Shown piece by piece: positions 3,679-17,565 of a stretch of 64,000 nucleotides of DNA. The stretch is from the NCBI GenBank assembly GCA_041648575.1, contig JBAZOT010000005.1:17161-81160 (forward strand), in the 5' to 3' direction. Made by a program: the position numbers and the translations under genes. The notes beneath the pieces were generated by a model. The model was given only the letters and a program-made list of their open reading frames with translations, was not told the origin of the DNA and did not search any database. Every line of letters starts with the position of its first letter. Within the stretch, counting starts at the first letter, position 1. The stretch comes from Patescibacteria group bacterium. Its GTDB lineage: Bacteria; Patescibacteriota; Patescibacteriia; Veblenbacterales; UBA10138.

Positions 3679-5175
3679 TTATTTTTGTATTGAAGCGGCA
3701 ATTTTGGAAAAATGGAACCAGTAAATTGCCATAGTCATGGCTCGTGGAAACGACTTAAAATTAGTTACCAAGGTTTTTACTGTAAGTTTCCAATAATACC
3801 ATCGGGCTTCAGACAGCAAACCAATATGCCACATACTTAACACCATCGGCCGTAAATCGCGCCAGGAAAAATGTCCTTTGGTTTTAGACGGGCAATGCTT
3901 TAAAAATGTATCCACTCGTCCAAAATATTCTTTAGTAGAAGAATAAATAACCGCCAACACCCGCCGATAACCAGCAAGTAATTCTTCCCGGTCCATTTTA
4001 GGAATAAAGTTTAAACTGCCATTTACATTATCCACAGTAGTTTCGCTCACTATTCTTTTTTCAGCTTCAAGCCTTTTCCATAACTTGGTTCCTGGACAAG
4101 CAACTAATAATCCCACCATCGCCTGAATAATGCCGGTTTTTTGAATGTAAGTTATTAGTTTGTCAAAGATATTTGGCGGATCGCCATCCAGACCAACCAT
4201 AAATCCTCCCATTACCTCCAAGCCCTTACTCATAATCTTTTTAACCGCATCTTCTAAATCAAATTTAAGATTAACAACCTTGCCAATGCTAATTAGCGCA
4301 GCTGTATCAGGACTTTCAATACCAATAAACACTCCTGAAAAATTAGCTTTAACCATTAAATCCATTAGCTCATCATCAGCCGCTAGATTAATGCTAGCTT
4401 GAGTAGTAAATATAAATGGATAATTATGTTCTTGCTGCCAAATAATCAAATACCGCAACATTTCCTTGAAGCGTAGTTTATTACCAATTGGATTATCGTC
4501 AGCTAAAAATATTGTGCCTTCGTATCCAGCTTGATATAGTGATTCAACTTCGTTAATCATCTGTTGTGGTGTCTTAGACCGAAATTTTGTGCCAAATAAA
4601 ATATGAATGTCACAAAACTCGCAACTATCACCATTTATATCACCCAAAGGGCAACCACGAGAAAACTGAAGACTCATGGTGGCATAATCATTAATATTTA
4701 TTAATGACCACATTGGTACTGGCGTTGTGGTAACATCAGCCCACTTATCTGTTGTATAGATATGCTTAGCGGCCCCATTATTTAAATCTTCTAAAAATAA
4801 CGGCAGTGTGATCTCGGCTTCATTAAGCACAAAATGATCTACGCCTTTGTATTTCTCTGGTTCAGTAGTAAAAGCTGGACCGCCAGCTACTACTATTTTG
4901 TCGAGTTCCTTACAACGATTAATGATTTCTTGTGCGCTAGTTTTTTGTATAACCATAGCACTAATAAAAATCATATCTGCGCTCGTGATGTCCTGATCAA
5001 GTAACGGCTCAACATTAACATCTACTAATTTTTTCTCCCAATCACTTGGCAACATCGCCGCTACTGTTAATAAACCCAGTGGCGGAAAAGCTGCTTTTCT
5101 TCCTATGAATTTTAAGATATGCTTAAAACTCCAGAAAGTTATAGGATATTCTGGGTAAACTAACAATATTTTCAT
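3679..5175 (-). CDS. B12-binding domain radical SAM protein
   Basis: N-terminal cobalamin-binding-like Rossmann region (MKILLVYPEYP...) followed by a radical SAM core with a Cys cluster (RGCPLGD...CEFCD). This architecture matches class B radical SAM enzymes. Confidence 0.7.
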   Translation of the reverse strand: MKILLVYPEYPITFWSFKHILKFIGRKAAFPPLGLLTVAAMLPSDWEKKLVDVNVEPLLDQDITSADMIFISAMVIQKTSAQEIINRCKELDKIVVAGGPAFTTEPEKYKGVDHFVLNEAEITLPLFLEDLNNGAAKHIYTTDKWADVTTTPVPMWSLININDYATMSLQFSRGCPLGDINGDSCEFCDIHILFGTKFRSKTPQQMINEVESLYQAGYEGTIFLADDNPIGNKLRFKEMLRYLIIWQQEHNYPFIFTTQASINLAADDELMDLMVKANFSGVFIGIESPDTAALISIGKVVNLKFDLEDAVKKIMSKGLEVMGGFMVGLDGDPPNIFDKLITYIQKTGIIQAMVGLLVACPGTKLWKRLEAEKRIVSETTVDNVNGSLNFIPKMDREELLAGYRRVLAVIYSSTKEYFGRVDTFLKHCPSKTKGHFSWRDLRPMVLSMWHIGLLSEARWYYWKLTVKTLVTNFKSFPRAMTMAIYWFHFSKIAASIQK

Positions 5176-5743: not shown

Positions 5744-5875
5744 AACTAATAAATCCTAAGCACTAATATCTAAATCTTAAATAAACCCAAATATCAAAAC
5801 CCGAATGACAATTCTTTTGGTATTTGAATTTTGTATTATGATATTATTTAGAAATTAGGATTTAGGATTTAGTAT

Positions 5876-6289
5876 TTAGTATTTTTTGGGTAGGTATTTT
5901 TCAAACTCCTGTCGCTCTTTTCCCTGAACAATTTCTTTGGGTAAACGCCACAAAGCATAACGCAAAATATATCCTAACCAAATAATAGCTACTAAAGTCC
6001 ACAACACAAACCACCAACGGGCTCCTAGCATGGGGGTTGAGGTTTGAGTAAATAATAAGCTAATACAATAAAATACGCCACTAGTAATAAATAAAGTGCC
6101 TAGCCGGCGGTACAATTTCTTTACTGGTGCAGTTTTAACTATCGCAGAAATAATTTTAAAAATAATTCCCACCACCACTAAACCAATAATCACACCCACG
6201 ATGATTTTAAAAGTATAATCCTGGAATTTAGGAGCATATGAAGAAAACAACCGCGACCAGGTAAAAAATGTTGTAAACCATTCCCACAT
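5876..6289 (-). CDS. hypothetical membrane protein
   Basis: 137 aa with several hydrophobic helices and no recognisable motif. Confidence 0.35.
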   Translation of the reverse strand: MWEWFTTFFTWSRLFSSYAPKFQDYTFKIIVGVIIGLVVVGIIFKIISAIVKTAPVKKLYRRLGTLFITSGVFYCISLLFTQTSTPMLGARWWFVLWTLVAIIWLGYILRYALWRLPKEIVQGKERQEFEKYLPKKY

Positions 6290-6295
6290 AAACTA

Positions 6296-6874
6296 TTATT
6301 TTATAAAAACAAAACCATAATGATAAGGACCCGCATCAAAAAATTTTTCCTCTTTCAAATTCAATTTAACAACCAACTCGCGCACTTTTTCTGGTGACAC
6401 ACGATTGGCAACTGCTGGACCAAACGGCGTGGGTTCTACTTTCCAATCAACCACCAACAGCTTTCCTCCTTGCTTAAGCAACCGCCTAGCTTCATCTAGC
6501 AGGGCCGCATTATTTCTTGACTGGAACATAATATTTATCAACAGGGCGCTATCTAAAGTATCGGGCGTGATTTTAGTTACGCCTACTCGCTCTAAATCTG
6601 ACCACACAGTTTCAATGTTTAAAATATTTTCCAATTTCGCTTTGCTTTTAACGCCTTCTAAAGCTGCTTTTAAAATATCCACAGCATAAACCTTGCCTCT
6701 ACTACCAACAATTTTAGCTGCCGGAATAGTAAAATAACCAGCACCGCCGCAACCCAAATCACCCACAAAATTACCAAATTTAACCTCTAGTTGTTTTTCT
6801 AATAACTCCTGGGGGTTTAAAAGTTTTGCTGGTACCAACTTACTTAACATATTTATATTATAGCACCAAATCAT
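6296..6874 (-). CDS. class I SAM-dependent methyltransferase
   Basis: Motif I VGDLGCGGAGYF and the post-I acidic residue pattern (LKQGGKLLVVDW). Confidence 0.7.
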   Translation of the reverse strand: MIWCYNINMLSKLVPAKLLNPQELLEKQLEVKFGNFVGDLGCGGAGYFTIPAAKIVGSRGKVYAVDILKAALEGVKSKAKLENILNIETVWSDLERVGVTKITPDTLDSALLINIMFQSRNNAALLDEARRLLKQGGKLLVVDWKVEPTPFGPAVANRVSPEKVRELVVKLNLKEEKFFDAGPYHYGFVFIK

Positions 6875-6993
6875 TAAAAATTAGAAGCTAGAATTTGGAA
6901 GTTGGAATTTAGAATCTAAAACCTGCCACTATCGCTATAATAAATAAAAGATTATGAGGTAGCTAAACACTATCTTTTTAAAAAATTGTCTTT

Positions 6994-7165
6994 CACCACT
7001 TTTTTAGAAAAAGTGGTGGGAAAAAGCGCCACACAGAAGCTTCAGGCAAGGCGGGTAGCAAATTCGTTTGCCCGTTCGTGGCGTTTTTAACTTGCGTGCC
7101 GGGTGTGGGGTGGTTAGGGGTAGAGGGCTCGGAGTTGCGAAGCCCGCTCTCTACCCCTAACAGAA
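6994..7165 (+). repeat. GC-rich structured repeat element, copy A (39-nt palindromic terminus plus hairpin-rich body)
   Basis: CACCACTTTTTTAGAAAAAGTGGTGGGAAAAAGCGCCAC is followed by an approximately 130-nt segment of about 60% GC with long hairpins. It is 39/39 identical (allowing one T indel) to the reverse complement of 17515-17553. Confidence 0.5.
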
Positions 7166-7169
7166 AAGA

Positions 7170-7802
7170 TTAAACTAATTTAAAACTCTTTCTATGAATT
7201 GCGCACAGTCCATGTTTTTTTATGGCTCGGCGATGAGCTAAGGTTCCATAACCTTTGTGTTGATGAAATCCGTAGCTTGGATATTTTTTATGATAATTTC
7301 TCATTAACTTGTCTCGCCAAACTTTGGCTAAAATTGAAGCACAGGCAATAGAAAAAACTTTTTGATCACCCTTAACCAAACAAGCAAATGGTAATTTAGA
7401 TTTGAATCCAGCAATATAATCTACTAATAAATAATTCGGTTTTATTTTAAGTTTAGCCACTGCCTGATTTACTACTTTAATATTCATGGCTTGAATACCG
7501 TATTTATCAATTTTTTTATTATCAATCTGGGCTACATCCCAAACTCGCACTGCTTTAGTAATTTTTTTATAAAGTTTTTCACGTAATGTCGGTGACAATT
7601 TTTTTGAATCCTTAACTTGTTTAATCCAAACTGCTTTGGGTTTTAAAATACTCGGAGAAAAAATAACTGCTGCTGCCACAATCGGCCCAGCCAAAGCACC
7701 CCTTCCTGCCTCATCTGCTCCTGCCACCAAATTAAAACCCCGCCGCCATAGCTTTTTTTCATATTTTAATGATATAACCATAGCTTTATTCTTAACCATC
7801 AA
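7170..7802 (-). CDS. rnhB: ribonuclease HII
   Basis: Motif DEAGRGALAGPIVAAAV and an RNase HII fold-length protein of 210 aa. Confidence 0.9.
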   Translation of the reverse strand: MMVKNKAMVISLKYEKKLWRRGFNLVAGADEAGRGALAGPIVAAAVIFSPSILKPKAVWIKQVKDSKKLSPTLREKLYKKITKAVRVWDVAQIDNKKIDKYGIQAMNIKVVNQAVAKLKIKPNYLLVDYIAGFKSKLPFACLVKGDQKVFSIACASILAKVWRDKLMRNYHKKYPSYGFHQHKGYGTLAHRRAIKKHGLCAIHRKSFKLV

Positions 7803-7876
7803 TCAAAATTTGCCAAGTTTTTTTAATATAATTTTTGACACACAACTAAACTTATAATAAACTAGTATAATTCACA

Positions 7877-8836
7877 TTGAACATTAAAATAATTTTGGAG
7901 AAAAAAATGTCATCACTTAATTTAACAATAATCAAAAGGATATTATATAAAACCCAATTACTAAAGGCACATAATCCGAATCATAAATTAATAAAATTAT
8001 TACTACTGATAGATTCCGGCGGGATGCGTGGCATTGTTAGTATGGGTAATTGCTTAGGACTTGAAAAACTTGAATTAACTGAGGTCTTTGACGATATAGT
8101 GACAATATCAGCTGGGACAGCTAACGGTGGATTTTTCCTAGCTAAACAATCTGCCCTTGCTTGCACTGTTTATACTGATGATCTAGTCGATCGCAGATTT
8201 ATCAATCCTCTACGTTTTTGGAAGGTGACCGATATTGACTACGTAAATGATATAGTATTCAGACACGTAAAAAAACTAGACACCGAAGCTATTAGAAAAT
8301 CGCGGCCAAATTTCTTTGCTTGTGTAACCAGGGTTGATGATGGTAATGGTGAATTTATGGACGTAAAAAAACAAGTCGATATTATCTCAGTGATTAAGGC
8401 TTCAATGGCTATGCTAGTGTTATATAATAAACCAATAAAAATTGGTAATAATTACTATGTAGATGGACTCACTAGTATGGGACTCCCTATTGATGAAATC
8501 ATTGATCAATTCTCGCCTACTGACATCTTAGTATTACTTAACAGACCTCTAGGCTATTGTCGCCCGAAACTATCGGTTATAGAAAAATCCATCAGTAAGT
8601 TGTATTTGAGAAAATTCCCTCAAGCATTAAAAAACTCTTTCTTTGACATGAATCGTAAATATTCTCATCAAATAAATACACTCCGGGAATGTGGCAATAA
8701 CTACCGTGGCGTAAATATTGGGATAATTCATCCAGATTACGAAGCTATCAAAAGAACAACAAAAAATCGTGACTTGCTATTACAAGCAGCACAAAAAGCA
8801 GAACAAGACATTTATAATATTTTGGGCAAACGCTAA
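7877..8836 (+). CDS. patatin-like phospholipase family protein (predicted catalytically altered: GTANGG instead of GTSTGG)
   Basis: Oxyanion-hole motif DSGGMRG and Asp motif YYVDGL are present. The GxSxG nucleophile elbow reads G-T-A-N-G (codon gct). Confidence 0.65.
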   Translation: MNIKIILEKKMSSLNLTIIKRILYKTQLLKAHNPNHKLIKLLLLIDSGGMRGIVSMGNCLGLEKLELTEVFDDIVTISAGTANGGFFLAKQSALACTVYTDDLVDRRFINPLRFWKVTDIDYVNDIVFRHVKKLDTEAIRKSRPNFFACVTRVDDGNGEFMDVKKQVDIISVIKASMAMLVLYNKPIKIGNNYYVDGLTSMGLPIDEIIDQFSPTDILVLLNRPLGYCRPKLSVIEKSISKLYLRKFPQALKNSFFDMNRKYSHQINTLRECGNNYRGVNIGIIHPDYEAIKRTTKNRDLLLQAAQKAEQDIYNILGKR

Positions 8837-8995
8837 GTTTGCCTTTTTTATTTTAATAAGGCTATCTACACAAAACCCATCTACTATTGCTCTCATATTT
8901 TAAACTAGAAAATCCTTTAATTGACATACCAATATTAGTGTATTAAGATATGCTAATTAAAGCAAAAATATAAACAATAAAAAAGGAGATTAAAA

Positions 8996-9379
8996 ATGCC
9001 GTTTACTAAAGATAGTCTACATAGACAGGCGCTGGGTCTTGCGTCTGGCGGATTAATTCTTTATGATCCGGAACGAATAGGATTTCAGCTACAAATCAAT
9101 TCGTCTATTGATATCACTGACTTATGCCCTAAACTGCCAGAAAAGAAAAAAAGAGGAATTAAGTGTGTGAGACTTGATTATGCTAAAACCTTTAAAGGAG
9201 AACTATATGTTCTCATTACCAAATGTCGTGGTGAAACAGATCACGGAAAATATGTTTATTACAATCTGTCTGACTTAAAAAAACCAGACTCAATATTTAA
9301 ACAATGGGCCAAGGACTTCGGCCTAACGCCGAAAAAACTCCGTGATACTATTCGGCAGTACGCCGAACGAATTAAATAA
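8996..9379 (+). CDS. hypothetical protein
   Basis: 127-aa ORF with an AGGAG ribosome-binding site upstream (aaaaaggagattaaaaATG) and a hairpin plus T-run terminator at 9403-9440. Confidence 0.4.
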   Translation: MPFTKDSLHRQALGLASGGLILYDPERIGFQLQINSSIDITDLCPKLPEKKKRGIKCVRLDYAKTFKGELYVLITKCRGETDHGKYVYYNLSDLKKPDSIFKQWAKDFGLTPKKLRDTIRQYAERIK

Positions 9380-9583
9380 AACAATCTAGTTTCAACAGTT
9401 TAAATCCTGATACTTAAATATCGGGATTTTTTATTTATTTAAAAAATACCCCGCTTGCAAATCCACCAGCCAGAGTTTAAACACAAACTACAGCTTTACC
9501 TATTGACTAATACATTATTTTAATATAAGATTAGGCAAAAGCAAAAATAATTAACTAATATAAAACAAAAAAAGGAGTTTACC

Positions 9584-10243
9584 ATGCCTACTACATATAT
9601 ATGGTTGGGTTTAATAATTTTGGCATTGCTATTGTGGATTTTATTTGCAACCCTCTTTTCTATACGTTTCAAACGCAAAAAAGGCAAAGACTATGATAGT
9701 GACGACGCTATGCTTGGTGGTGTTGCTGTGGCATTAATTGGCGTATTTATATTAAGAGGTATTATAGGATTAATCACCAGCCAGACCTTCCCCGCTCAAT
9801 CATTCCTAGTTACGTCCGAAGGTAAAATACTAGCTACATTTGAGGAAGAAAGCAGATTGTGGAATTGGGATAAACGCTTAGAGGGGATAATTTGTTTATC
9901 CTATGCACCGATTGAGCAAAATATTGTATTAAATCTCCATCCAGTCACAAAAAACCCTAAGGTACTCAATCTACAATATACAATACGTGTACTTGCTGGC
10001 GGAACACCCGAAGCTATAATGACACAACAATGCATCACTAAAAAATATGGTGGTTTACAAGAATTTATAGAATTTCACCTATATGAATTTAATCGCGAGC
10101 ACGGTGGTGAATGTGTTGCTTTTGATAATCCCCGTGACTATGAGCAACAAACAAAATTTCAATCTTTAATTAAGTCATTCTTAGAGCCACGTCTTGTTGA
10201 CACCGAAATAAAATTCCAAGATGCCTACTTTCTGCTAAACTAA
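9584..10243 (+). CDS. hypothetical membrane-anchored protein
   Basis: 219 aa with two N-terminal transmembrane helices and an RBS (aaaaaaggagtttaccATG). Confidence 0.4.
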   Translation: MPTTYIWLGLIILALLLWILFATLFSIRFKRKKGKDYDSDDAMLGGVAVALIGVFILRGIIGLITSQTFPAQSFLVTSEGKILATFEEESRLWNWDKRLEGIICLSYAPIEQNIVLNLHPVTKNPKVLNLQYTIRVLAGGTPEAIMTQQCITKKYGGLQEFIEFHLYEFNREHGGECVAFDNPRDYEQQTKFQSLIKSFLEPRLVDTEIKFQDAYFLLN

Positions 10244-10310
10244 TAATTACTCACATCCCCCGGCCTTGCATATTGCATAACGGGGGTTGGTTTTTGTATA
10301 CTATTCTATT

Positions 10311-11579
10311 CTAATACTTCCCCCTCGCCTCAATTGCTTTACCAATTCTTTCTATAGCTAATACAAAAGCTGCAGTGCGTAAATCAATTTTTAATTCCTG
10401 CACCTTGCTCCAAATATCATTAAAGGCACGAGTCATAATTGGTTTTAGTTTTTCCATCACTTCTTTCTCTTCCCAATAATATTGCCCGATATTCTGCATT
10501 AATTCAAAATATGATACCGTAACGCCGCCGGCATTGGCTAACACATCGGGCACTACTATAATTTTTCGCTTGGCGAGTTTAACATCTGCCTCGGGCGTAG
10601 TTGGTCCATTAGCCATTTCAAATACTACTTTAGTTTTTATGCGGCCGGCGTTTTTGGAAGTTATCTGATTTTCTAAAGCTGCCAACACTAAAATATCTGT
10701 TGGCAGTTCTAATAATTGCTTGTTAGTTACTTGTTTAAAATTCTTACAATCACAAACCGTGCCAATACAATAACAGCCAGCAATTAAGCCACGGGCTTTT
10801 TTATCTTGCATCACATGTTCCGGATCCATACTAATACCATTTTTGGAATAAATTCCACCTTGGGAATCAGACAAACCAATTATTTTATAACCAACTTGAT
10901 AAGCTAATTTAGCAAAATTAAAACCAACATTACCAAAACCCTGCACAATAATTCTGGTTTTTTTAGGATTTAATTTTAATTTTTTGGCCAGTTCAGTTAA
11001 AACAAACAAGCCGCCTTGACCTGTGGCTTCAGCGCGACCGGCCGAACCGCCTAATTCCAAAGGCTTGCCAGTTACCACCCCCGGCACCTTTTTACCAACT
11101 ACACGCGAGTATTCATCCACAATCCAACCCATCATTTCCGGAGTAGTATTTACGTCAGGCGCTAAAATATCTTGCTCTGGTCCAATAAACGGAACTAAAC
11201 GACGAGTTAAGGCGCGAGTTAAACGTTCCAGTTCGTTCTTGGATAATTTTTTTGGGTCAACTGTAATACCGCCTTTGCCGCCACCCAAAGGAATATCCAC
11301 TACTGCACATTTTATTCCCATCCAAAAAGCTAAAGCCTTAACTTCGTCCAAATTAGTTTGTGGATGATAACGTAAACCACCTTTATAAGGACCCCGAGCA
11401 GAAGTGTATTGTACGCGAAAACTTTCAAACACACGAGTTGCGCCGTTATCCATTACTACTGGCAAAGAAAACTGCACCACCCGCTCTGGGTGTTTTAATT
11501 GCTCTAAAGCTTCTGGGAATACTTTGGCATACCCAGCTGCTTTTTTAAGTTGTTGCATGGCATTATTGAATACGGACAT
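10311..11579 (-). CDS. gdhA: Glu/Leu/Phe/Val dehydrogenase family (glutamate dehydrogenase)
   Basis: Catalytic motif GGGKGG and an NAD(P) Rossmann domain (GFGNVG). Confidence 0.9.
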   Translation of the reverse strand: MSVFNNAMQQLKKAAGYAKVFPEALEQLKHPERVVQFSLPVVMDNGATRVFESFRVQYTSARGPYKGGLRYHPQTNLDEVKALAFWMGIKCAVVDIPLGGGKGGITVDPKKLSKNELERLTRALTRRLVPFIGPEQDILAPDVNTTPEMMGWIVDEYSRVVGKKVPGVVTGKPLELGGSAGRAEATGQGGLFVLTELAKKLKLNPKKTRIIVQGFGNVGFNFAKLAYQVGYKIIGLSDSQGGIYSKNGISMDPEHVMQDKKARGLIAGCYCIGTVCDCKNFKQVTNKQLLELPTDILVLAALENQITSKNAGRIKTKVVFEMANGPTTPEADVKLAKRKIIVVPDVLANAGGVTVSYFELMQNIGQYYWEEKEVMEKLKPIMTRAFNDIWSKVQELKIDLRTAAFVLAIERIGKAIEARGKY

Positions 11580-11590
11580 AAATAAATAAA

Positions 11591-12010
11591 TTAATTAATT
11601 AATTTACGATTTAGTACATAAAGCGCTCCGGCCAGTATTATCAACAAAACTCCTTCAACTAAGGCCTGGGTTTGTTTATATGCTGATGAATATTGTGCCC
11701 AGTTTATGGTATAAACCATATAAATTGTAAGCAAGCCATTAACTATAGCTACTAAAGATATTCCCTTGACCAAGGGGGAATATTTATCTGGATGACGGGC
11801 TATTAAAAAAATTATTACTGATAAAGCCAATGACGCCATGGCAATTATTGAATCATGATAGGAACTATACAAAGCGCTATCAAACCAGGGAAAAATTGTT
11901 AAACCAAAATAATGAGCTATTGATCCAATGAAATAAAACGCAGAGGCAAGGTAAAGAATTACTCTTAACAATTTTACTCTAAATAATGAACCGGAATTAG
12001 TATTAAACAT
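11591..12010 (-). CDS. hypothetical membrane protein
   Basis: 139 aa with four predicted transmembrane segments. Confidence 0.35.
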   Translation of the reverse strand: MFNTNSGSLFRVKLLRVILYLASAFYFIGSIAHYFGLTIFPWFDSALYSSYHDSIIAMASLALSVIIFLIARHPDKYSPLVKGISLVAIVNGLLTIYMVYTINWAQYSSAYKQTQALVEGVLLIILAGALYVLNRKLIN

Positions 12011-12053
12011 GAAATAAGCCTTAAATTAAAATTTAAAAATCAAAATGTAAAAT

Positions 12054-12290
12054 TTACTTCTTTTGTTTATTATCGATTAAAGTATTTTTATGTGGATAGC
12101 AACATAAAACATTATCTAAATATTGCACACCACAAAAATATTTACAAATTGAAACATTTTTTATAGCGCATTTATGATTATCCACTCCCTCGGCCTCATT
12201 CCAAGGACATTTCATTTGTTTCCATGAGGTTTTATCTTCTGAAGTAAGATCAATATCCATATTTGCCCCATCTAAAACTTTTGTTTTCAT
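12054..12290 (-). CDS. small Cys-rich hypothetical protein
   Basis: 78 aa containing 8 Cys (CPWNEAEGVDNHKCAIKNVSICKYFCGVQYLDNVLCC). It lies immediately upstream of, and on the same strand as, the HD-Nudix gene. Confidence 0.3.
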   Translation of the reverse strand: MKTKVLDGANMDIDLTSEDKTSWKQMKCPWNEAEGVDNHKCAIKNVSICKYFCGVQYLDNVLCCYPHKNTLIDNKQKK

Positions 12291-12333
12291 AAATATATTA
12301 ATTAAAATTTAAGAATACTTATTAGACTATTAA

Positions 12334-13494
12334 CTACAAATTACCTCGGTTTATGGTTCTTCTCCAGTCTTGTATCGCTTCCCTATGTTTATAGGCAATT
12401 AATTTTGGTAATGTATCCATCGAAAAATATCTAACTTCCGACGACTCTTTGTTAAGCCTAGACTCACCACCTATTATTGAACCGAAATAGATTATATCTA
12501 AGTTTATTCCCCGTGGATCGTTATCTATCTGGTAAACGCCAACCAATTTATCAACCTTAATATCCAGATTAGTTTCCTCCTTAACTTCCCTAATTAATGC
12601 AGACTCTGGTTTCTCTGAATAATTGACGTAACCACCGGGCAAACACCAAAAATTTTTAAGCGGTGTTTTTGCTCGTTTAATAAGTAAAATTTTCCCTTGT
12701 TTCTTGAGAATTACACTAACGACTGGTTTGGGATTGTTCCAAAAAACAAAATTACATTTTGGGCAGAATAATAACCTTTGTCTGTCCACTAATTTCCTTT
12801 TCAATTGATTAGAACAAGTAGGACAAAAGTTATATTCTTTCTCCCTCGGATTATTTTTTATGTAAAATTCTTTAATAATTTCATTCTTAAAACTATTAAA
12901 GATGTTGTTTTCTAACTGGTACTCCCAGAGAAAAATTCTTGCAGAATCAGGAAGCTTGCTCACCATAAATCTTATTTTATCCTTAATTCTCCCTCTTCCC
13001 TCTGCTTTAAATAATTTAGGCGCTATCGAAGTAAAAAATGCAAAGCTATCTGCCGTAACGAGATAATTTAAATCCTGGTCATTTAACTTTTCAACCTTAT
13101 CCCCAGTATCATCATGGTTGGTTATTAAAAAATTAATTCTCTTTATAATATCACTTTTTATATTATTTTTCTTCAAAATAGGAACGATAAATTTTACACT
13201 TCTTTTAGCATGCAACTTCTTATGTTCTAAGTATGCTCTACTACTCCTATCTCCTTTAAAACCACCTCCCACTTTAGGTGTTACCACCCTATCAATATCA
13301 TGAAACAAAGCAGCTAATTTTAAAGCGGTTGAAGCACTTGGATTCAATTTTTCAATCCAATCTAAAACATCTAAAGCGTGTAACCTTTCTCCCTTTACCC
13401 CCTGCATTATATCCTTATCATGACATTCGAATCTTCTACAAATTTGTTCTAATATTTTTTTAGCCTTTTCAATCGTATTATTCATAATACACAT
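12334..13494 (-). CDS. HD-domain / zinc-ribbon / NUDIX hydrolase fusion protein (NudC-like C-terminal half)
   Basis: An N-terminal HD motif (H...HDID) is followed by paired CxxC zinc-ribbon motifs (CPTCSN...CPKCNF) and a Nudix box (GGYVNYSEKPESALIREVKEETNL). Confidence 0.7.
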   Translation of the reverse strand: MCIMNNTIEKAKKILEQICRRFECHDKDIMQGVKGERLHALDVLDWIEKLNPSASTALKLAALFHDIDRVVTPKVGGGFKGDRSSRAYLEHKKLHAKRSVKFIVPILKKNNIKSDIIKRINFLITNHDDTGDKVEKLNDQDLNYLVTADSFAFFTSIAPKLFKAEGRGRIKDKIRFMVSKLPDSARIFLWEYQLENNIFNSFKNEIIKEFYIKNNPREKEYNFCPTCSNQLKRKLVDRQRLLFCPKCNFVFWNNPKPVVSVILKKQGKILLIKRAKTPLKNFWCLPGGYVNYSEKPESALIREVKEETNLDIKVDKLVGVYQIDNDPRGINLDIIYFGSIIGGESRLNKESSEVRYFSMDTLPKLIAYKHREAIQDWRRTINRGNL

Positions 13495-13521
13495 TAAATA
13501 CTCGCATCATTAACTATTAAA

Positions 13522-14505
13522 CTACTTTCCTGCCCTTCCCCAATCAATTTTAACGCCCCGCAGCCCCCGTACTTTTTGCAAATATTCATAAGCTTTAAGC
13601 GCAGCAGTAGCGCCCCAGCCAGCTGAAATTACAATTTGCTTATAAGAAATCGCAGTCAAATCGCCGGCAGCAAAAATTCCCGGAGCCGAGGTTTCTGCAT
13701 CCCAAGAAATTTTAATTTGCTTTCGCTCATCCAAATCCACCAACCCTTCTACCAATTTAGCATCCACCACAAAACCTACTTGAACAAATACTCCTTCAGT
13801 AATAATTTCCCTAGTTTTATTTGGGTCACGATTATCATAAATCACCACACTTTTAACCCTAGTATCACCCTTGATTTCCTTAACTTGGCTATTCATTATT
13901 ACCTCAATCTGCGGCTGTTTTAATTGCTCCACTAACACTGCTTCAGCATTAAAATTATCATTACGATTAACCAAATAAACTTTGGGACTGTTTTTAGCCA
14001 GGAGCAACGCAGCATCTATTGCTGAATTGCCACCACCCACCACCATCACCGGCTTATTTTTAAATAATGGCGCATCGCAGGTCGCGCAATAACCAACTCC
14101 TTTAGCACCAAATTCTTTTTCGCCCGGCACATTTAAATGCCGATGGGTTAAACCAAAAGCTAAAATCACACTATAGCTAGTATAATTTTCAGTATTAGTG
14201 GAAATCGTAAACAATGGCTTATTTTCTTTGTCTTGTTTACTCTCAATTTTTGTAACTTCAGCAAACACAAACTCTGTACCGAATTTTTCCGCTTGCTTTT
14301 TAAACTTATCCATCAATTCCGGGCCAGTAATCAACTCCACACCTGGATAATTTTCTATTTCATCAGTACTAGCTGCTTGCCCGCCAATATCTGGGGAGAT
14401 TAATAATGTTTTTAAAGCCCGGCGTGAGGAATAAATCCCGGCAGTGAGTCCCGCAGCTCCGCCACCAATAATAATTACATCAAATATCTTTTTGTCATCA
14501 GTCAT
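13522..14505 (-). CDS. trxB: thioredoxin-disulfide reductase
   Basis: FAD motif IIGGGAAGLTAG, redox-active CATCD, and an NADPH motif (VVGGGNSA). Confidence 0.9.
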   Translation of the reverse strand: MTDDKKIFDVIIIGGGAAGLTAGIYSSRRALKTLLISPDIGGQAASTDEIENYPGVELITGPELMDKFKKQAEKFGTEFVFAEVTKIESKQDKENKPLFTISTNTENYTSYSVILAFGLTHRHLNVPGEKEFGAKGVGYCATCDAPLFKNKPVMVVGGGNSAIDAALLLAKNSPKVYLVNRNDNFNAEAVLVEQLKQPQIEVIMNSQVKEIKGDTRVKSVVIYDNRDPNKTREIITEGVFVQVGFVVDAKLVEGLVDLDERKQIKISWDAETSAPGIFAAGDLTAISYKQIVISAGWGATAALKAYEYLQKVRGLRGVKIDWGRAGK

Positions 14506-14522
14506 AAATAATAAATTATTTA

Positions 14523-14846
14523 TTAAGAATGTTTTTCCAAAGCTTGTTTTAATTTATCCTTGGGTTGTACTCCATGAAATTGCTCTACCACTTTTCCTTG
14601 TTTAAAAATAAATAGTGTGGGAATACTCATCACATTATATTGCCCAGCCATAGTTGTATTTTCATCCACATTAATCATACCAACTTTAAAAGGTTTGCCT
14701 TCTAAATCTCGGGCTAGCTCTTCCACAATTGGCCCAAGCATGCGGCAAGGGCCACACCATGGCGCCCAAAAATCAACCAACACTGGTACCTCGCTTTTTA
14801 AAACCTCTTGCTCAAAATTTTGATCTGTTAAATTTATTTCTGCCAT
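14523..14846 (-). CDS. trxA: thioredoxin
   Basis: WCGPC active site in a 107-aa protein. Confidence 0.9.
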   Translation of the reverse strand: MAEINLTDQNFEQEVLKSEVPVLVDFWAPWCGPCRMLGPIVEELARDLEGKPFKVGMINVDENTTMAGQYNVMSIPTLFIFKQGKVVEQFHGVQPKDKLKQALEKHS

Positions 14847-14886
14847 AACATAAATTTAAAAATTAAAAATCAAAATATAAAATAAA

Positions 14887-15156
14887 TTAAGAAGTAATTT
14901 TAAACAATTGAGCAACTGTACGCTCAAGTTTTTTTATTTTATCTTGAGAGCCAGTCCCTGATCCAAAACATCCAGTAGCTTCGACTTCCAACAACAAACG
15001 CCCCAAACGTTCCAACGAAGCCCTAGCTGCCACAATTTGTTGCAGTACTTCAGAACAAGCGCGTTTGTCTTGTATCATTCCGCCTATACCTTGAATTTGT
15101 CCTTGAAGCCGATTAAAATGCTGACTGACTTCTTTAATGTCACATTCTATACTCAT
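14887..15156 (-). CDS. metal-sensitive transcriptional repressor, CsoR/RcnR/FrmR family
   Basis: 89-aa all-alpha protein with a motif similar to CsoR (RLQGQIQGIGGMIQDKRACSEVLQQIVAARASLERLG). Confidence 0.65.
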   Translation of the reverse strand: MSIECDIKEVSQHFNRLQGQIQGIGGMIQDKRACSEVLQQIVAARASLERLGRLLLEVEATGCFGSGTGSQDKIKKLERTVAQLFKITS

Positions 15157-15178
15157 ACTATATACTAGTATATAGTAT
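15155..15178. promoter_or_regulatory. 24-bp perfect palindrome ATACTATATACTAGTATATAGTAT overlapping the csoR-like start codon (candidate operator)
   Basis: The perfect dyad was verified base by base. It sits directly at the minus-strand ATG (15154-15156) and no Shine-Dalgarno sequence is visible. Confidence 0.3.
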
Positions 15179-15311
15179 TAACATAAATTTGTCAATATTT
15201 TAAAATAAACATGGCTGTGCACGGGCATAGTCGTACGTTCAATAAACAACCGTCAGGAAATTCCTGACCATTATTAATCACTATCGTGACACACCCAGTT
15301 TATAATTAACT

Positions 15312-15352
15312 GGAAAAACCCGATTCGTTTGTATTAGAATCGGGTTTTATTT
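15312..15352. terminator. bidirectional rho-independent terminator
   Basis: Stem AACCCGATTC/GAATCGGGTT with a 10-nt loop, flanked by an A-run and a T-run. Confidence 0.5.
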
Positions 15353-15416
15353 ATAACGACGCTTAATAATGGCTAAAATTAGCTATTTTTATTAATTTAA
15401 CGTCAAGATCTACTTA

Positions 15417-15438
15417 AATTGTTCCACGTGGAACAATT
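15417..15438. promoter_or_regulatory. 22-bp perfect palindrome AATTGTTCCACGTGGAACAATT (copy 1, 3' side of tRNA-Ala)
   Basis: Perfect dyad. A second copy lies at 15698-15717. Confidence 0.3.
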
Positions 15439-15521
15439 GTACTCAATTCTCCATATCATAATATACAATACTTAACCACGAGTAATTCTATATAATTACA
15501 CTTAAATAAAAATTAGGTACT

Positions 15522-15597
15522 TGGTGGACCGTACCGGATTTGAACCGGTGACCTCTTCCATGCCATGGAAGCGCTCTACCAACTGAGCCAACGGCCC
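15522..15597 (-). tRNA. tRNA-Ala (anticodon GGC)
   Basis: Manual cloverleaf: acceptor GGGCCGT/ACGGTCC with a G3:U70 pair, anticodon loop ATGGCAT, T-loop TTCAAAT, and encoded CCA. Confidence 0.9.
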
Positions 15598-15697
15598 GCT
15601 AAACACCCAATTTTGGGATATTTCTAAACTTGCTTGTATATTATAGCTAAATAATGAAAACAGTCAATTATATCAATAAAATCAAGGCTTTTTACCA

Positions 15698-15717
15698 ATT
15701 GTTCCACGTGGAACAAT
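15698..15717. promoter_or_regulatory. 20-bp perfect palindrome ATTGTTCCACGTGGAACAAT (copy 2, 5' side of tRNA-Ala)
   Basis: Identical core to the palindrome at 15417-15438. Confidence 0.3.
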
Positions 15718-15774
15718 ATTAACTTACTGCGTTAGTTTCACTATTTCAGGAATAAAATCCAGATATTTTACCCA

Positions 15775-16536
15775 TTACCCTTGTCCTGTTTTACGTGTTG
15801 GAGTATTGGCCATTTCATTTAAAATTGCTAATAAAGGAAAGATAATAACGGCATTTATAATCCGAAATATGCGCTTTGGTTGCTTAATTACCCGCCATAA
15901 CCATTCTAAGCCGAGTTTCTGTATATTTTTTGGCGCCCTAGATACTTGTCCACTTAAATAATCAAAACTACCTCCCACACCAATAGCTACTTTTACACTT
16001 GGTATTTGTTTTAAATAATAACTTATCCACTTTTCCTGTTTAGGAGCTCCAAAACCTACTAACAAAACCTGTGGCTGATGTTTATTTATTTCATTTATTA
16101 ATCGATCGTTATCATTGCTAGATAAAGGAAACTGATCATTATCATTAAAAAATGGTCCTACCAAATAATTAATATTTGTCTGGGTGTATTTTTGTTTAAT
16201 TTTATCTAAAACTTCACTGGATCCGCCAGTAATCAAAAATGAATAATTGCTATTTTGTAATAACTGATCAACTAAATCAACTCCGCGAACTAAACCGCTA
16301 TATAACGGTTTGCCTATAATGTAAGAAATGAATTTGATACCAAAACCATCTGGTACGCGTAAACTGGCTTGATTTAAAATATCAAAATAGTCGTGATGTT
16401 TTTTAGCGTATAATAATATTTCTGGATTAGCTGTAACTATTAACTGCTGACCCTGGCTATTAACTAACTCGTCAATTTTTTTCAATGTCTGGTCTAGAGA
16501 AATATCATCAATCGGTAAATTAAAAATCTTTAACAT
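15775..16536 (-). CDS. WecB/TagA/CpsF family glycosyltransferase (N-acetylmannosaminyltransferase-like)
   Basis: Conserved VTANPEI... and RVPDGFGI motifs in a 253-aa protein. Confidence 0.75.
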   Translation of the reverse strand: MLKIFNLPIDDISLDQTLKKIDELVNSQGQQLIVTANPEILLYAKKHHDYFDILNQASLRVPDGFGIKFISYIIGKPLYSGLVRGVDLVDQLLQNSNYSFLITGGSSEVLDKIKQKYTQTNINYLVGPFFNDNDQFPLSSNDNDRLINEINKHQPQVLLVGFGAPKQEKWISYYLKQIPSVKVAIGVGGSFDYLSGQVSRAPKNIQKLGLEWLWRVIKQPKRIFRIINAVIIFPLLAILNEMANTPTRKTGQG

Positions 16537-16609
16537 ACAGTGTTATTGTAGCACTTCAACGCTTTAACACTATAACAATATAACATTTAAACACCACGAA
16601 ATTTTAATT

Positions 16610-16690
16610 TAAAAAAGCGCGGCAGGGGTGGGGTTGTTAGAGGTAGAGGACGGCCTCCACAATTCTAAGTCGCCTGCCTCTAGCAAAAAA
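16610..16690 (+). repeat. partial copy C of the GC-rich structured element
   Basis: GGGGTGGGGTTGTTAGAGGTAGAGG...CCTCTAGCAAAAAAG aligns with the distal part of copy A (GGGGTGGTTAGGGGTAGAGGG...CTCTACCCCTAACAGAAAAG). Confidence 0.3.
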
Positions 16691-16706
16691 GTAGCCATTT
16701 GACTTA

Positions 16707-16730
16707 TTAAGTGTACTATAGTACACTTAA
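16707..16730. promoter_or_regulatory. 24-bp perfect palindrome TTAAGTGTACTATAGTACACTTAA ending 6 bp before the lexA ATG (candidate SOS/LexA operator)
   Basis: Perfect dyad with a TGTAC-N4-GTACA core. The position fits an autoregulatory operator. Confidence 0.45.
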
Positions 16731-16736
16731 TATACT

Positions 16737-17321
16737 ATGTCTCGACCACTTAGCAACAACTTAAGAACCAAAGAGCTAAAGAAGTTTTGGCAAGTTAATG
16801 AGCGTATGCCCAGTTATGCGGAAATTGCCGAGTTTTGTAAATTTAATTCCAAATTTGCCGCCTTGCGCCTAGCGCGTAAATGGCTGGCTTTAGGTTATGC
16901 TAAAAAAGATTATTCAGGAAAATTAATACCTGGAAAATTAATATGGCCAGTAAAACTTTTAGGCACGGTACAAGCCGGATTTCCCAGCCCAGCTGAAGAA
17001 GAAATGGCCGACACTATTTCGCTAGACGACTGGCTAATTAAAAAACGCGAAGCTAGTTTTATGTTAAAAGTTACTGGCGATTCCATGATTGACGCAGGAA
17101 TTCAACCGGGCGATATGGTGATACTCGAACGCGGCCGCGAACCGCGGCACGGCGATGTGGTGGTGGCTGAAGTTGATAGGGAATGGACTATTAAATTTTT
17201 TGAAAAGCGCAATCGGCAAATTGTGCTACGGCCAGCTAATAAAAAATATCAAACAATTGTGCCACGAGAAGAGTTAAAAATCGCCGGCGTAGTAACCGCG
17301 GTTATTAGGAAATATAAGTGA
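16737..17321 (+). CDS. lexA: LexA-like transcriptional repressor (S24 peptidase)
   Basis: N-terminal winged-helix region, an Ala-Gly cleavage site (VQAGFPSPA), Ser nucleophile GDSM, and a catalytic Lys (TIKFFEKR). Confidence 0.85.
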   Translation: MSRPLSNNLRTKELKKFWQVNERMPSYAEIAEFCKFNSKFAALRLARKWLALGYAKKDYSGKLIPGKLIWPVKLLGTVQAGFPSPAEEEMADTISLDDWLIKKREASFMLKVTGDSMIDAGIQPGDMVILERGREPRHGDVVVAEVDREWTIKFFEKRNRQIVLRPANKKYQTIVPREELKIAGVVTAVIRKYK

Positions 17322-17384
17322 ACACAAATTCTAAACTCTAATATCTAAATCCTAAACAAATTTAAAATACCAATACCAAAACAT

Positions 17385-17553
17385 TAATGCCACCATAGCG
17401 AGGGTAAGAAAACGGCGTGGAACCGAAGCGAGCGAAAAAGTAGCCGCGTGTTATGGTTGTTTTGCATAGCGGCTACAGCGAGCGACGGTAACGCCGTCTT
17501 ACCCGAAGCTCCTGGTGGCGCTTTTTCCCACCACTTTTTCTAAAAAAGTGGTG
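17385..17553 (-). repeat. GC-rich structured repeat element, copy B (inverted relative to copy A)
   Basis: The terminal 39-mer at 17515-17553 is the reverse complement of 6994-7032. The body (17385-17514) is GC-rich with long stems such as GTAGCCGC...GCGGCTAC. Confidence 0.5.
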
Positions 17554-17565
17554 AAAGAATTAAAT

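Follow-up and report, generated by a model that had tools for sequence, protein, structure and literature searches.

Mosaic palindromic repeats in intergenic spacers of a Patescibacteria lineage: a probable new family of REP/BIME-like elements

In this report, we describe a structured, GC-rich repeat that occurs in three copies on a 64,000-nt stretch of a Patescibacteria group bacterium genome (contig JBAZOT010000005.1, assembly GCA_041648575.1; the whole stretch is called 'the window' and was searched in full for other exact copies). Two substantial copies, A and B, and a partial third, C, probably belong to a previously undescribed family of modular palindromic repeats, selfish and recombining, akin to repetitive extragenic palindromic (REP) sequences and bacterial interspersed mosaic elements (BIMEs), to BOX elements or to Rickettsia palindromic elements (RPEs), a reading that we hold with some reserve. 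The element is repeated and modular, is present, absent or reversed at orthologous sites of relatives, contains an internal inversion in one copy, keeps its base pairing, and lies in the spacers of a 10-kb block of conserved gene order. The elements would appear to be mobile, because the spacers that hold them are polymorphic between relatives. Genomes of the candidate phyla radiation (CPR, or Patescibacteria) are tiny and usually described as repeat-poor. A modular repeat turning over between close relatives would offer a handle on the genome dynamics of these unculturable organisms, bearing on recombination, operon splitting (lexA/dinB) and transcription termination.

Copies A and B share an inverted repeat of 44 nt, found in a repeat search of the window, whose two arms (6989-7032 and 17515-17558) are 100% complementary and free of indels. 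An earlier, sequence-only reading of the window had described a 39-nt inverted palindromic terminus with a T indel; the repeat itself stands, longer and perfect, and the indel resolves into the asymmetric 3-nt loop of a hairpin read on the other strand. This hairpin, CACCACTTTTT-CTA-AAAAAGTGGTG, is the perfect palindrome with 11-bp arms that the same reading had recognized in each terminus. Neither the hairpin 25-mer nor the 20-mer GTGGCGCTTTTTCCCACCAC is found elsewhere in the window, where the chance expectation is 0. The bodies next to the repeat are GC-rich as proposed, although less so than the suggested 60% or so in a background of roughly 33%: they measure 57% (7033-7165) and 55% (17385-17514), where the window averages 37.5%, and rank in the top 0.05% and top 0.5% of 130-nt windows, respectively. 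Their dense predicted stems are likewise borne out, with copies A and B folding far more strongly than shuffled sequences on both strands (z of -3.6 to -7.2). Copy C had been suspected as a partial copy at 16610-16690; the distal module of the family profile matches it at 16608-16690 (E=8.5e-14), and its extent is 16606-16690.

The anatomy of the family emerges from relatives. A scan for the hairpin core, with one genome per species, gave 53 loci, three of which (L027, L035 and L045) carry a window-like extension, GTGGTG-NN-AAAAAGCGCCAC-N5-GCTTCRG. A metagenome scan with GTGGTGNNAAAAAGCGCCAC returned 92 stretches, only six of them true members (L064, L065, L068, L091, L112 and L113); the rest were mostly unrelated, such as coding sequence with a SufC-like GGEKKRHE motif or a human-gut GTGGTGGCAAAAAGCGCCACCA repeat. 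Homologues of the methyltransferase encoded beside copy A led to further members (L146, L148 and L151-154), and a family profile was built from four full copies. The terminal repeat thus recurs in relatives (L027, L035, L045, L064 and others), a recurrence on which the sequence-only reading had made its claim depend.

In a complete element, which measures about 340 nt, A/T-rich linkers join four imperfect palindromes, M1 to M4, into a chain. M1, a 25-nt hairpin (CACCAC-T5/A5-GTGGTG), leads through an RNAAAAAG linker to M2, whose hairpin is about 125 nt long (GCGCCAC...GCTATGC-loop-ACACGC...GATGGTGGCA). An AT-rich linker then precedes M3, a hairpin of about 85 nt (AAACGCC...GCGTGTTATGG...GCATAGC...GGCGTTT) in which the apex sequence of M2 recurs as its reverse complement. 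M4, of about 75 nt, has a leader (GCGTGCCRGGWGYGGGG) in front of its hairpin (TTAGGGGTRGAGG...CCTCYACCCCTAA) and a YRAAAAG tail behind it. This four-module form is present in L045, L035, L064, L146 and L151-154. In the window, copy B consists of M1 and M2 (profile positions 3-176) and copy C of M4 only (positions 262-344); copy A joins positions 4-58 to 234-346, which amounts to M1 and M4 on either side of a chimeric M2/M3 hairpin. The complete element is thus a mosaic of palindromic modules, of which A and B hold different ones. It is for this reason that their bodies diverge after the first 17 nt, a divergence already noted from the letters and borne out by the profile. The 44-mer is the best-conserved part of every family copy, with 41-42 of 44 positions identical in other species, so that its identity between A and B needs no special explanation.

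Copy A is rearranged internally (Table 1). Its profile match runs over positions 4-58 at 6990-7045 and then jumps to positions 234-346 at 7056-7169, the chimeric hairpin being a fusion of profile positions up to 58 with positions from 234. This hairpin lies between AAAAA (7021-7025) and TTTTT (7084-7088), which gives it the shape of a bidirectional terminator. Furthermore, the M4 hairpin of copy A is inverted within the element: compared with other copies, it is identical at 41-43 of 47 positions as the reverse complement and at 33-37 of 47 when read directly. A possible remnant of the M2 3' end, listed tentatively, lies between copy A and the methyltransferase promoter; the corresponding region of an identical contig, L157, gives a weak profile match (E=0.075).

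Table 1. Positions of the repeat modules, of neighboring genes and of related palindromes. Positions are those of the window unless a locus is named.
Feature	Position	Strand	Remarks
SAM (S-adenosylmethionine) methyltransferase gene	6296-6874	-	Pfam
rnhB, RNase HII	7170-7802	-	Pfam
lexA, LexA-like S24 peptidase	16737-17321	+	Pfam
dinB	start ATG 17566	+	IMS domain begins at residue 19 of the ATG form
Copy A, 44-nt block: TCTTT + M1 hairpin + linker GGAAAAA + M2 5' arm (GCGCCAC)	6989-7032	+	perfect reverse complement of 17515-17558
Copy A, M1 hairpin CACCACTTTTT-TAG-AAAAAGTGGTG, 11-bp arms	6994-7018	+	core shared with 53 genome-collection loci
Copy A, chimeric hairpin: M2 5' start + M3 3' arm	7026-7083	+	closed by GCGCCAC/GTGGCG
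Copy A, M4 leader GCGTGCCGGGTGTGGGGTGG	7094-7113	+	family profile match
Copy A, M4 hairpin, inverted ('flop') relative to its own leader and every other copy	7114-7160	+	minus-strand profile match 7162-7113
Copy A, A-rich element tail CAGAAAAGA	7161-7169	+	YRAAAAG tail kept in family; abuts rnhB stop codon 7170-7172
Possible M2 3'-end relic, AGCGATAGTGGCA on minus strand (tentative)	6924-6936	-	compare CGCGATAGTGGCA / CGCGATGGCGGCA
Copy C, M4 alone, decayed stem	16606-16690	+	family profile; divergent wecG-lexA spacer
Copy B, M2, single long hairpin, plus-strand reading GCCACCA...TGGTGGC	17389-17519	-	profile 3-176 at 17558-17381
Copy B, linker, plus-strand reading GCTTTTTCC	17520-17528	-	U-run directly after M2 hairpin in lexA-to-dinB direction
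Copy B, M1 hairpin	17529-17553	-	ends 12 nt before dinB ATG (17566)
Copy B, 44-nt block	17515-17558	-	partner of 6989-7032
Phased short repeats	5751-5785, 5847-5884, 6860-6925, 17326-17360		also in spacers of L064, L148, L150
In-frame palindromes in protein-coding genes	L001 5099-5125; L036 2557-2581; L003 5736-5761; L013 4976-5000; L039 2999-3024		5-6 bp GC-rich outer stem
Palindrome as P3 of Saccharibacteria RNase P RNA	L017 3679-4082		hairpin 3703-3726
Palindrome in second peripheral hairpin of Parcubacteria RNase P RNA	L044 1-647		arms 1-16, 278-294; second hairpin 513-536
Palindrome within group I intron	L004 172-382		hairpin 210-232

The element is gained, lost, truncated, fused and inverted between close relatives. 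The methyltransferase of the window organism is encoded on an 85-kb contig of a metagenome-assembled genome (MAG), its nearest named relatives are Veblenbacteria and Kerfeldbacteria, and the family is limited to a narrow Patescibacteria clade near the MAGs bearing these names. The spacer between rnhB and the methyltransferase gene varies in both length and content, described here in order of falling methyltransferase identity. It spans 295 nt in the window (100%), arranged in gene direction as M4'-chimeric M3/M2'-M1' (copy A); 398 nt in L146 (90%), with a full element in the window orientation; and 61 nt, empty, in L147 (88%). It then holds M1-M2 in the opposite orientation in L027 (85%, 267 nt), only M4'-M3' in L148 (83%, 246 nt) and a full element in the opposite orientation in L064 and L151-154 (81%, about 490 nt), and is again empty in L150 (76%, 63 nt) and L155 (72%, 21 nt). 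Elsewhere, family members lie 3' of htrA and of clpB in another genome (L035 and L045), and L159 has an intact M4 upstream of lexA, the site of copy C in the window. All family copies are intergenic, mostly just 3' of genes. The element also coincides with breaks in independent assemblies, L157 starting exactly at M1 and L159 inside M4, which makes it a practical nuisance for short-read assembly.

The genes around the copies place these events within otherwise stable DNA. Pfam confirms the flanking genes as they had been named (methyltransferase, rnhB, lexA and dinB). The block between A and B contains GDH, thioredoxin, thioredoxin reductase, a CsoR-like repressor, tRNA-Ala and wecG; all of its open reading frames (ORFs) with a Pfam name are housekeeping genes, with no recombinase or transposase among them, and four further ORFs matched nothing. 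The element-free locus L155 keeps the gene order of the window throughout the block, with the same relative orientations from dinB to the methyltransferase gene (dinB, an 11-nt gap, lexA, wecG, CsoR-like repressor, thioredoxin, thioredoxin reductase, GDH ... rnhB, methyltransferase), and L150, whose rnhB-methyltransferase spacer is empty, shows the block's gene order and orientation as in the window. Given this collinearity without the element, the housekeeping content and the lack of a recombinase, the 10.3-kb segment is ancestral housekeeping DNA, into whose spacers the elements inserted at a later time.

The 11-nt gap between dinB and lexA in L155 suggests an SOS operon, and copy B likely separates this ancestral pair in the window. 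The start of dinB is almost certainly the ATG listed in Table 1, to judge from the reading frame; GTG 17515 is the first start codon of a stop-free frame running through the element, which yields the longest dinB ORF. Copy B thus lies before dinB as first described, but the overlap with the gene was an artifact of the called start, and gene callers may similarly misannotate other genes beside such repeats. The lexA-dinB spacer appears as an insertion hotspot in relatives too, with a 3.4-kb insert carrying a reverse transcriptase in L158 and an unrelated ORF in L159. In L158 (8106-9950, same MAG as L027), the insert holds a gene for a 370-aa reverse transcriptase (RVT_1) and a short Avd-like ORF, as well as an AAC-rich template-like stretch (~9520-9640) and two unknown genes. 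It has the look of a diversity-generating retroelement that entered the hotspot also used by copy B. A link between this retroelement and the repeat family was considered and rejected: the insert shares no sequence with the element and is a separate insertion at the same place.

Pairing is conserved in all parts of the element. Across the full element, 27 of 102 pairs covary and all four helices contain compensatory changes. In the M1-M2 alignment, to which the window copy belongs, pairing holds in 93% of cells and double changes affect 22 of 47 pairs, compared with 8.8 +/- 2.0 in shuffles (0 of 500 reached the observed 22) and 2-7 in slid controls. The M1 stem alone is kept in three forms: CACCACTTTTT; GCTACTTCTTT/AAGAAGTAGC; and GCTATTTCTTT/AGAAATAGC. 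Compensatory changes of this kind had been looked for as support of the stems, yet they are not proof of an RNA, since the arms of a DNA palindrome also co-evolve and the reverse strand folds equally well; consensus folds of the two strands are similar, at -107 and -118 kcal/mol (alifold; reverse strand -118).

These properties are consistent with an element that behaves as selfish, recombining DNA of intergenic spacers, similar to REP/BIME, BOX, Correia or RPE sequences. M1 would itself be a selfish palindrome, and the M1-M4 arrays would be mosaics of such units. Together with the inverted arms, M1 would provide substrates for flips and deletions: because it is a direct as well as an inverted repeat of its own sequence, two copies could mediate either deletion or inversion, which fits the reversed elements in the rnhB-methyltransferase spacer. 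The GC-rich stems of M2 and M3 present a hairpin and then a U-tract in either orientation, and probably terminate transcription or stabilize 3' ends. In the window, copy B would have split the ancestral lexA-dinB pair, and copy A follows rnhB.

The geometry behind the proposed termination is apparent in both modules: M2 reads AAAAAG-GCGCCAC...GTGGCG-CTTTTT and M3 AAAC-GCC...GGC-GTTT, so that each stem stands between a run of A and a run of T. On the lexA strand of copy B, the M2 hairpin (...TGGTGGC) is followed by GC-TTTTT; in copy A, the rnhB strand reads GTGGCG-C-TTTTT and its complement GTGGCG-TTTTT; and T-rich linkers follow M2 in relatives with the opposite orientation. Judged by this arrangement, the element is probably a bidirectional transcription terminator or 3'-end stabilizer in either orientation, an activity that would make its presence at gene ends tolerable. 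The ordinary terminators of the window, as called by a simple terminator scan, are much shorter hairpins of 17-28 nt, which argues that termination is a side effect and not the reason for the family's existence.

Several observations weigh against the interpretation as selfish repeats. The 44-mer and long stretches of M2 are near-invariant across species and covariation is strong, as would also be expected of a functional RNA or a protein-binding site. Copies within a genome have diverged (the bodies of A and B are about 70% identical or unalignable, and L035 and L045 are 78% identical) and therefore were not recently amplified. Only three copies occur in 64 kb, all within 10.5 kb, and an added 1.6 kb of the window's own contig holds no further copy. 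No target-site duplication is definable for the composite M1-M4, the divergence between filled (L146 and window) and empty (L147) spacers being too great for a clean alignment that would fix its edges. The composite also lacks terminal inverted repeats (TIRs), its M1 side and M4 tail being unrelated, with only the M1 unit alone forming a TIR-TIR palindrome. Neither the window nor the examined loci of relatives contain a transposase or RAYT-like gene, and the simple terminator scan of the window did not call the long hairpins of the element.

Among other explanations, the copies could form an undescribed family of trans-acting or structural small RNAs (sRNAs), each an independently transcribed noncoding RNA gene, with paralogues and pseudogene fragments. 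Such a family, already raised by the sequence-only reading, would account for the very strong folding relative to shuffles, the extensive covariation, and the near-invariance across species of unpaired M2 stretches and of the M3 apex. TATAAA-like hexamers occur in the AT-rich linker before M3, and a variable orientation relative to neighbors would be harmless to an independent gene. Among non-pairs of M2 on the M1-to-M4 strand, A.C exceeds G.U (12 vs 3 cells), hinting at one preferred strand, but this bias is based on few, phylogenetically linked events. Rfam offers no matching family: only tRNAs reached the gathering threshold in the window, and relaxing the cutoff to E<=10 brought up nothing credible, whether the query was a window copy or the full element of L045 or L146. 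Moreover, no conserved promoter or terminator frames the element, truncated, chimeric and single-module copies occur, the two strands fold almost equally well, close relatives lack the element, and the flipped M4 hairpin of copy A would swap a loop sequence for its complement. We regard an sRNA family as unlikely. It is quite improbable, too, that the copies are simply lineage-specific intrinsic terminators, alike through convergent selection or local duplication and devoid of mobility. The hairpin and U-tract geometry in both orientations and the location at gene 3' ends are what such terminators would show, but convergence cannot produce homology over about 340 nt between unrelated loci and genomes, and normal terminators of the window have the far smaller size given above. 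Copy C, furthermore, lies in a divergent promoter region, and module make-up varies among copies.

Two explanations suggested by the position of the copies fare worse against the relatives. One is control of dinB and the methyltransferase gene by a cis-regulatory leader, a riboswitch or a common operator, for example with M1 occluding the ribosome-binding region of dinB and GTGG/CCAC segments in alternative pairings. It draws on the M1 hairpin ending 12 nt before the dinB ATG, on the ability of GCCACCA, TGGTGG, CCACCAC and GTGGTG to form mutually exclusive helices, and on both window copies having the same orientation relative to the downstream gene, an observation of the sequence-only reading that is true within the window. 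The same genes, however, occur in relatives without the element (L147, L150 and L155) or with an inverted one (L027, L064 and L151-154). The hairpin lies 115 nt upstream of the methyltransferase ATG, beyond the conserved TGCTATAAT promoter (TATAAT), a separate conserved LexA-type palindrome (AGTGTAC-N4-GTACACT) precedes lexA, and the two downstream genes are functionally unrelated, which together make this explanation very improbable. As for the 44-mers being TIRs of a 10.5-kb composite transposon or crossover sites of an invertible segment, the perfect inverted repeat at the outer ends of the pair had invited this idea, and the family does show inversions across inverted repeats (the M4 flip and the orientation flips of spacers), from which a rare RecA-mediated inversion of the block is conceivable. 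The element-free L155 and L150 nevertheless share the block's order and orientation, and its housekeeping content includes no recombinase or transposase, so the claim of TIR-like ends falls and we find this explanation hardly credible.

The repeat family thus preferred invites comparison with known systems. REP/BIME sequences of Enterobacteria and Pseudomonas, which have side effects as terminators or mRNA stabilizers, are likewise mosaics of imperfect palindromes in alternating orientation (here, the M3 apex is an inverted M2 apex) with short linkers; they are intergenic, located at gene 3' ends, and vary in unit number between strains. In contrast, M2-M4 measure 75-125 nt versus 20-40 nt for REP units, there is no GTAG-type 5' tetranucleotide and no sequence similarity, the apparent copy number is low, the host is a small-genome CPR bacterium, and no RAYT (TnpA-REP) gene was found in the window or the examined loci. 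BOX elements of Streptococcus pneumoniae (boxA-boxB-boxC) and Correia/NEMIS elements of Neisseria influence transcription of neighboring genes and similarly combine modules in varying ways, with strong predicted structure and intergenic location. They have no sequence homology to the window family; BOX modules are shorter, with boxB tandemly repeated, and Correia elements have clear TIRs and a TA duplication, unlike the composite M1-M4. Bidirectional intrinsic terminators share with M2 and M3 the GC-rich stem, upstream A-tract and downstream T-tract, but the family's stems are 4-6 times longer than the normal ones of this genome and its units are homologous between loci. Miniature inverted-repeat transposable elements (MITEs) come closest among the candidates originally listed, on account of presence/absence polymorphism at orthologous sites and several dispersed copies (other loci L035 and L045); the composite without TIRs and the lack of a demonstrated target duplication nonetheless place the family outside the strict definition. 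TIGR-Tas arrays were rejected, as the element is not a tandem array and there is no Tas-like gene, and so were integron attC sites, given the core-gene neighbors, variable orientation and absence of an integrase. By analogy, then, the family seems to function like REP/BIME, BOX and Correia elements, and M1 like RPEs, while in sequence it is a member of none. Nothing relevant on CPR palindromic repeats or MITEs was found in the searchable literature, and as far as that literature shows, intergenic mosaic palindromic repeats are new for this phylum.

The M1 palindrome extends beyond the family. Its 53 core loci comprise 36 in Patescibacteria, 3 in Omnitrophota, 4 in Aenigmatarchaeota and 10 in other lineages, usually in the form A(C/T)CCNN-core-NNGG(G/A)T. 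M1 is absent from 2.9 million viral contigs, and the M4 motif is missing from viral contigs too, which argues against a phage link. Among the 29 loci whose outer stem has 5 bp or more, 13 carry a 4-nt T-N-N-A direct repeat just outside that stem (control mean 1.4, maximum 7, in 2000 trials). Strict flanking repeats of at least 5 nt are weak, at 4 of 53 loci versus 0.48 in controls, and the same four remain at 6 nt or more (control 0.38). Some palindromes lie in frame within protein-coding genes (Table 1). In two prepilin leaders, L001 (MRLQTKKGIYPAPLFNVKSGAG|FTLIE) and L036 (...KGFTQHHFLKKSGAG|FTLVE), the palindrome sits just before the G|FTLIE cleavage motif and the 'GFT' codons are duplicated; others are in a TatD-like ORF and further long ORFs. 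In the C-terminal domain of gatB, the palindrome encodes a 12-residue insert, DVAPHHFFEKSG, that homologues of 80-82% identity do not have. RNA genes are hit as well, namely two RNase P RNAs and a group I intron. In L044 (1-294), the P3 arms CCCCCCACCACTTTTT ... AAAAAGTGGTGGGGGGG bracket an ORF for an 84-aa GIY-YIG endonuclease (Pfam E=2.6e-17), so that a protein gene lies inside the P3 loop of an RNase P RNA, and L034 holds a 110-bp, ORF-less version of the M1-arm cassette with a TAAA duplication.

From these loci, one could propose that the M1 hairpin is the signature of an undescribed mobile mini-palindrome of CPR, Omnitrophota and DPANN archaea, which makes T-N-N-A duplications and inserts in frame into genes and into peripheral loops of RNase P RNA and of a group I intron, with the M1-M4 arrays as accretions around it; we consider this possible though rather doubtful. 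The mini-palindrome may derive from hairpin-flanked GIY-YIG endonuclease cassettes, a mere lead that comes from one locus. More boldly, the CACCA/UGGUG stem, similar to the 3' end of a tRNA, could be a functional RNA motif read by conserved machinery of ultra-small organisms. If a mobile mini-palindrome does exist in CPR and DPANN, it would be an RPE-like selfish DNA colonizing proteins and ribozymes, and a marker of DNA exchange between co-occurring CPR and DPANN lineages. RPEs themselves number 728 in Rickettsia felis, 85 of them in ORFs and 3 in RNA genes (PMC1166351). The M1-type loci match this pattern of invasion, in support of M1 being a selfish palindrome. Both are small palindromes in coding regions, noncoding regions and RNA genes of reduced genomes, whereas the CPR palindrome is about 35-40 bp rather than 100-150 bp, spans several phyla and DPANN archaea, has 4-nt T-N-N-A flanks and is unrelated in sequence.

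Side by side with the window, four Aenigmatarchaeota loci (L011, L032, L033 and L053) show the architecture [GC-rich hairpin ending GCCTCC]-CTTTTGACC-[CACCAC hairpin], which parallels the window's [..GTGGCGC]-TTTTTCC-[CACCAC hairpin]. Two of them, L032 and L033, also have hairpins of the same design built from other 6-mers (CACAGC-T6-CAAG-A5-GCTGTG and TAACC-T5-GGT-A5-GGTTA).

Further observations concern the spacers around the block. A palindrome of the AGTGTAC-N4-GTACACT type, AGTGTACTATAGTACACT, lies at 16710-16727, 10 nt upstream of the lexA ATG. The window has no second site of this kind; in L158 and L159, lexA is preceded by nearly identical palindromes. The site is probably the SOS box of the lineage (GTAC-N4-GTAC type). 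M1 itself was considered as a LexA operator, and none is present upstream of dinB in L155, L158 or L159. Another perfect palindrome, the 22-nt ATTGTTCCACGTGGAACAATTG, occurs at 15418-15439 and 15696-15717, either side of tRNA-Ala(GGC) (15522-15597), and nowhere else in the window (0.05 expected by chance). The pair could be operators, for example for the CsoR-like repressor gene (14887-15156), or a mark of site-specific recombination or of insertion around the tRNA.

Phased short repeats (TTCTAA / TTTAGGA / TTCTAG), for example TTTAGGATTTAGTATTTAGTATTT, are found in AT-rich spacers near elements and promoters, and recur upstream of the conserved methyltransferase promoter. The methyltransferase ATG lies only about 7 nt past the -10 box of this promoter, so that its mRNA may be leaderless. 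About 1.3 kb past the right end of the window, in the same organism, L160 (~14830-15044) contains a tRNA-like 5' half, GGGCCTGGGTAGCTCAGCGG...TAGAGCG, after a tRNA-Arg/Lys/Pro cluster. ARAGORN makes no tRNA call on this half, which is interrupted by a 39-nt GC-rich hairpin and directly followed by a GIY-YIG ORF that runs off the contig end. Finally, the human-gut stretches returned by the metagenome scan form an unrelated repeat family (L059, L066, L067, L070 and about 40 other loci), matched only via the shared 20-mer pattern, in which hairpin arrays of GTGGTGGCAAAAAGCGCCACCAC, spaced by ~20-60 nt, lie upstream of a conserved 'GGGTTCAAGGGAAAAATCCCT'.

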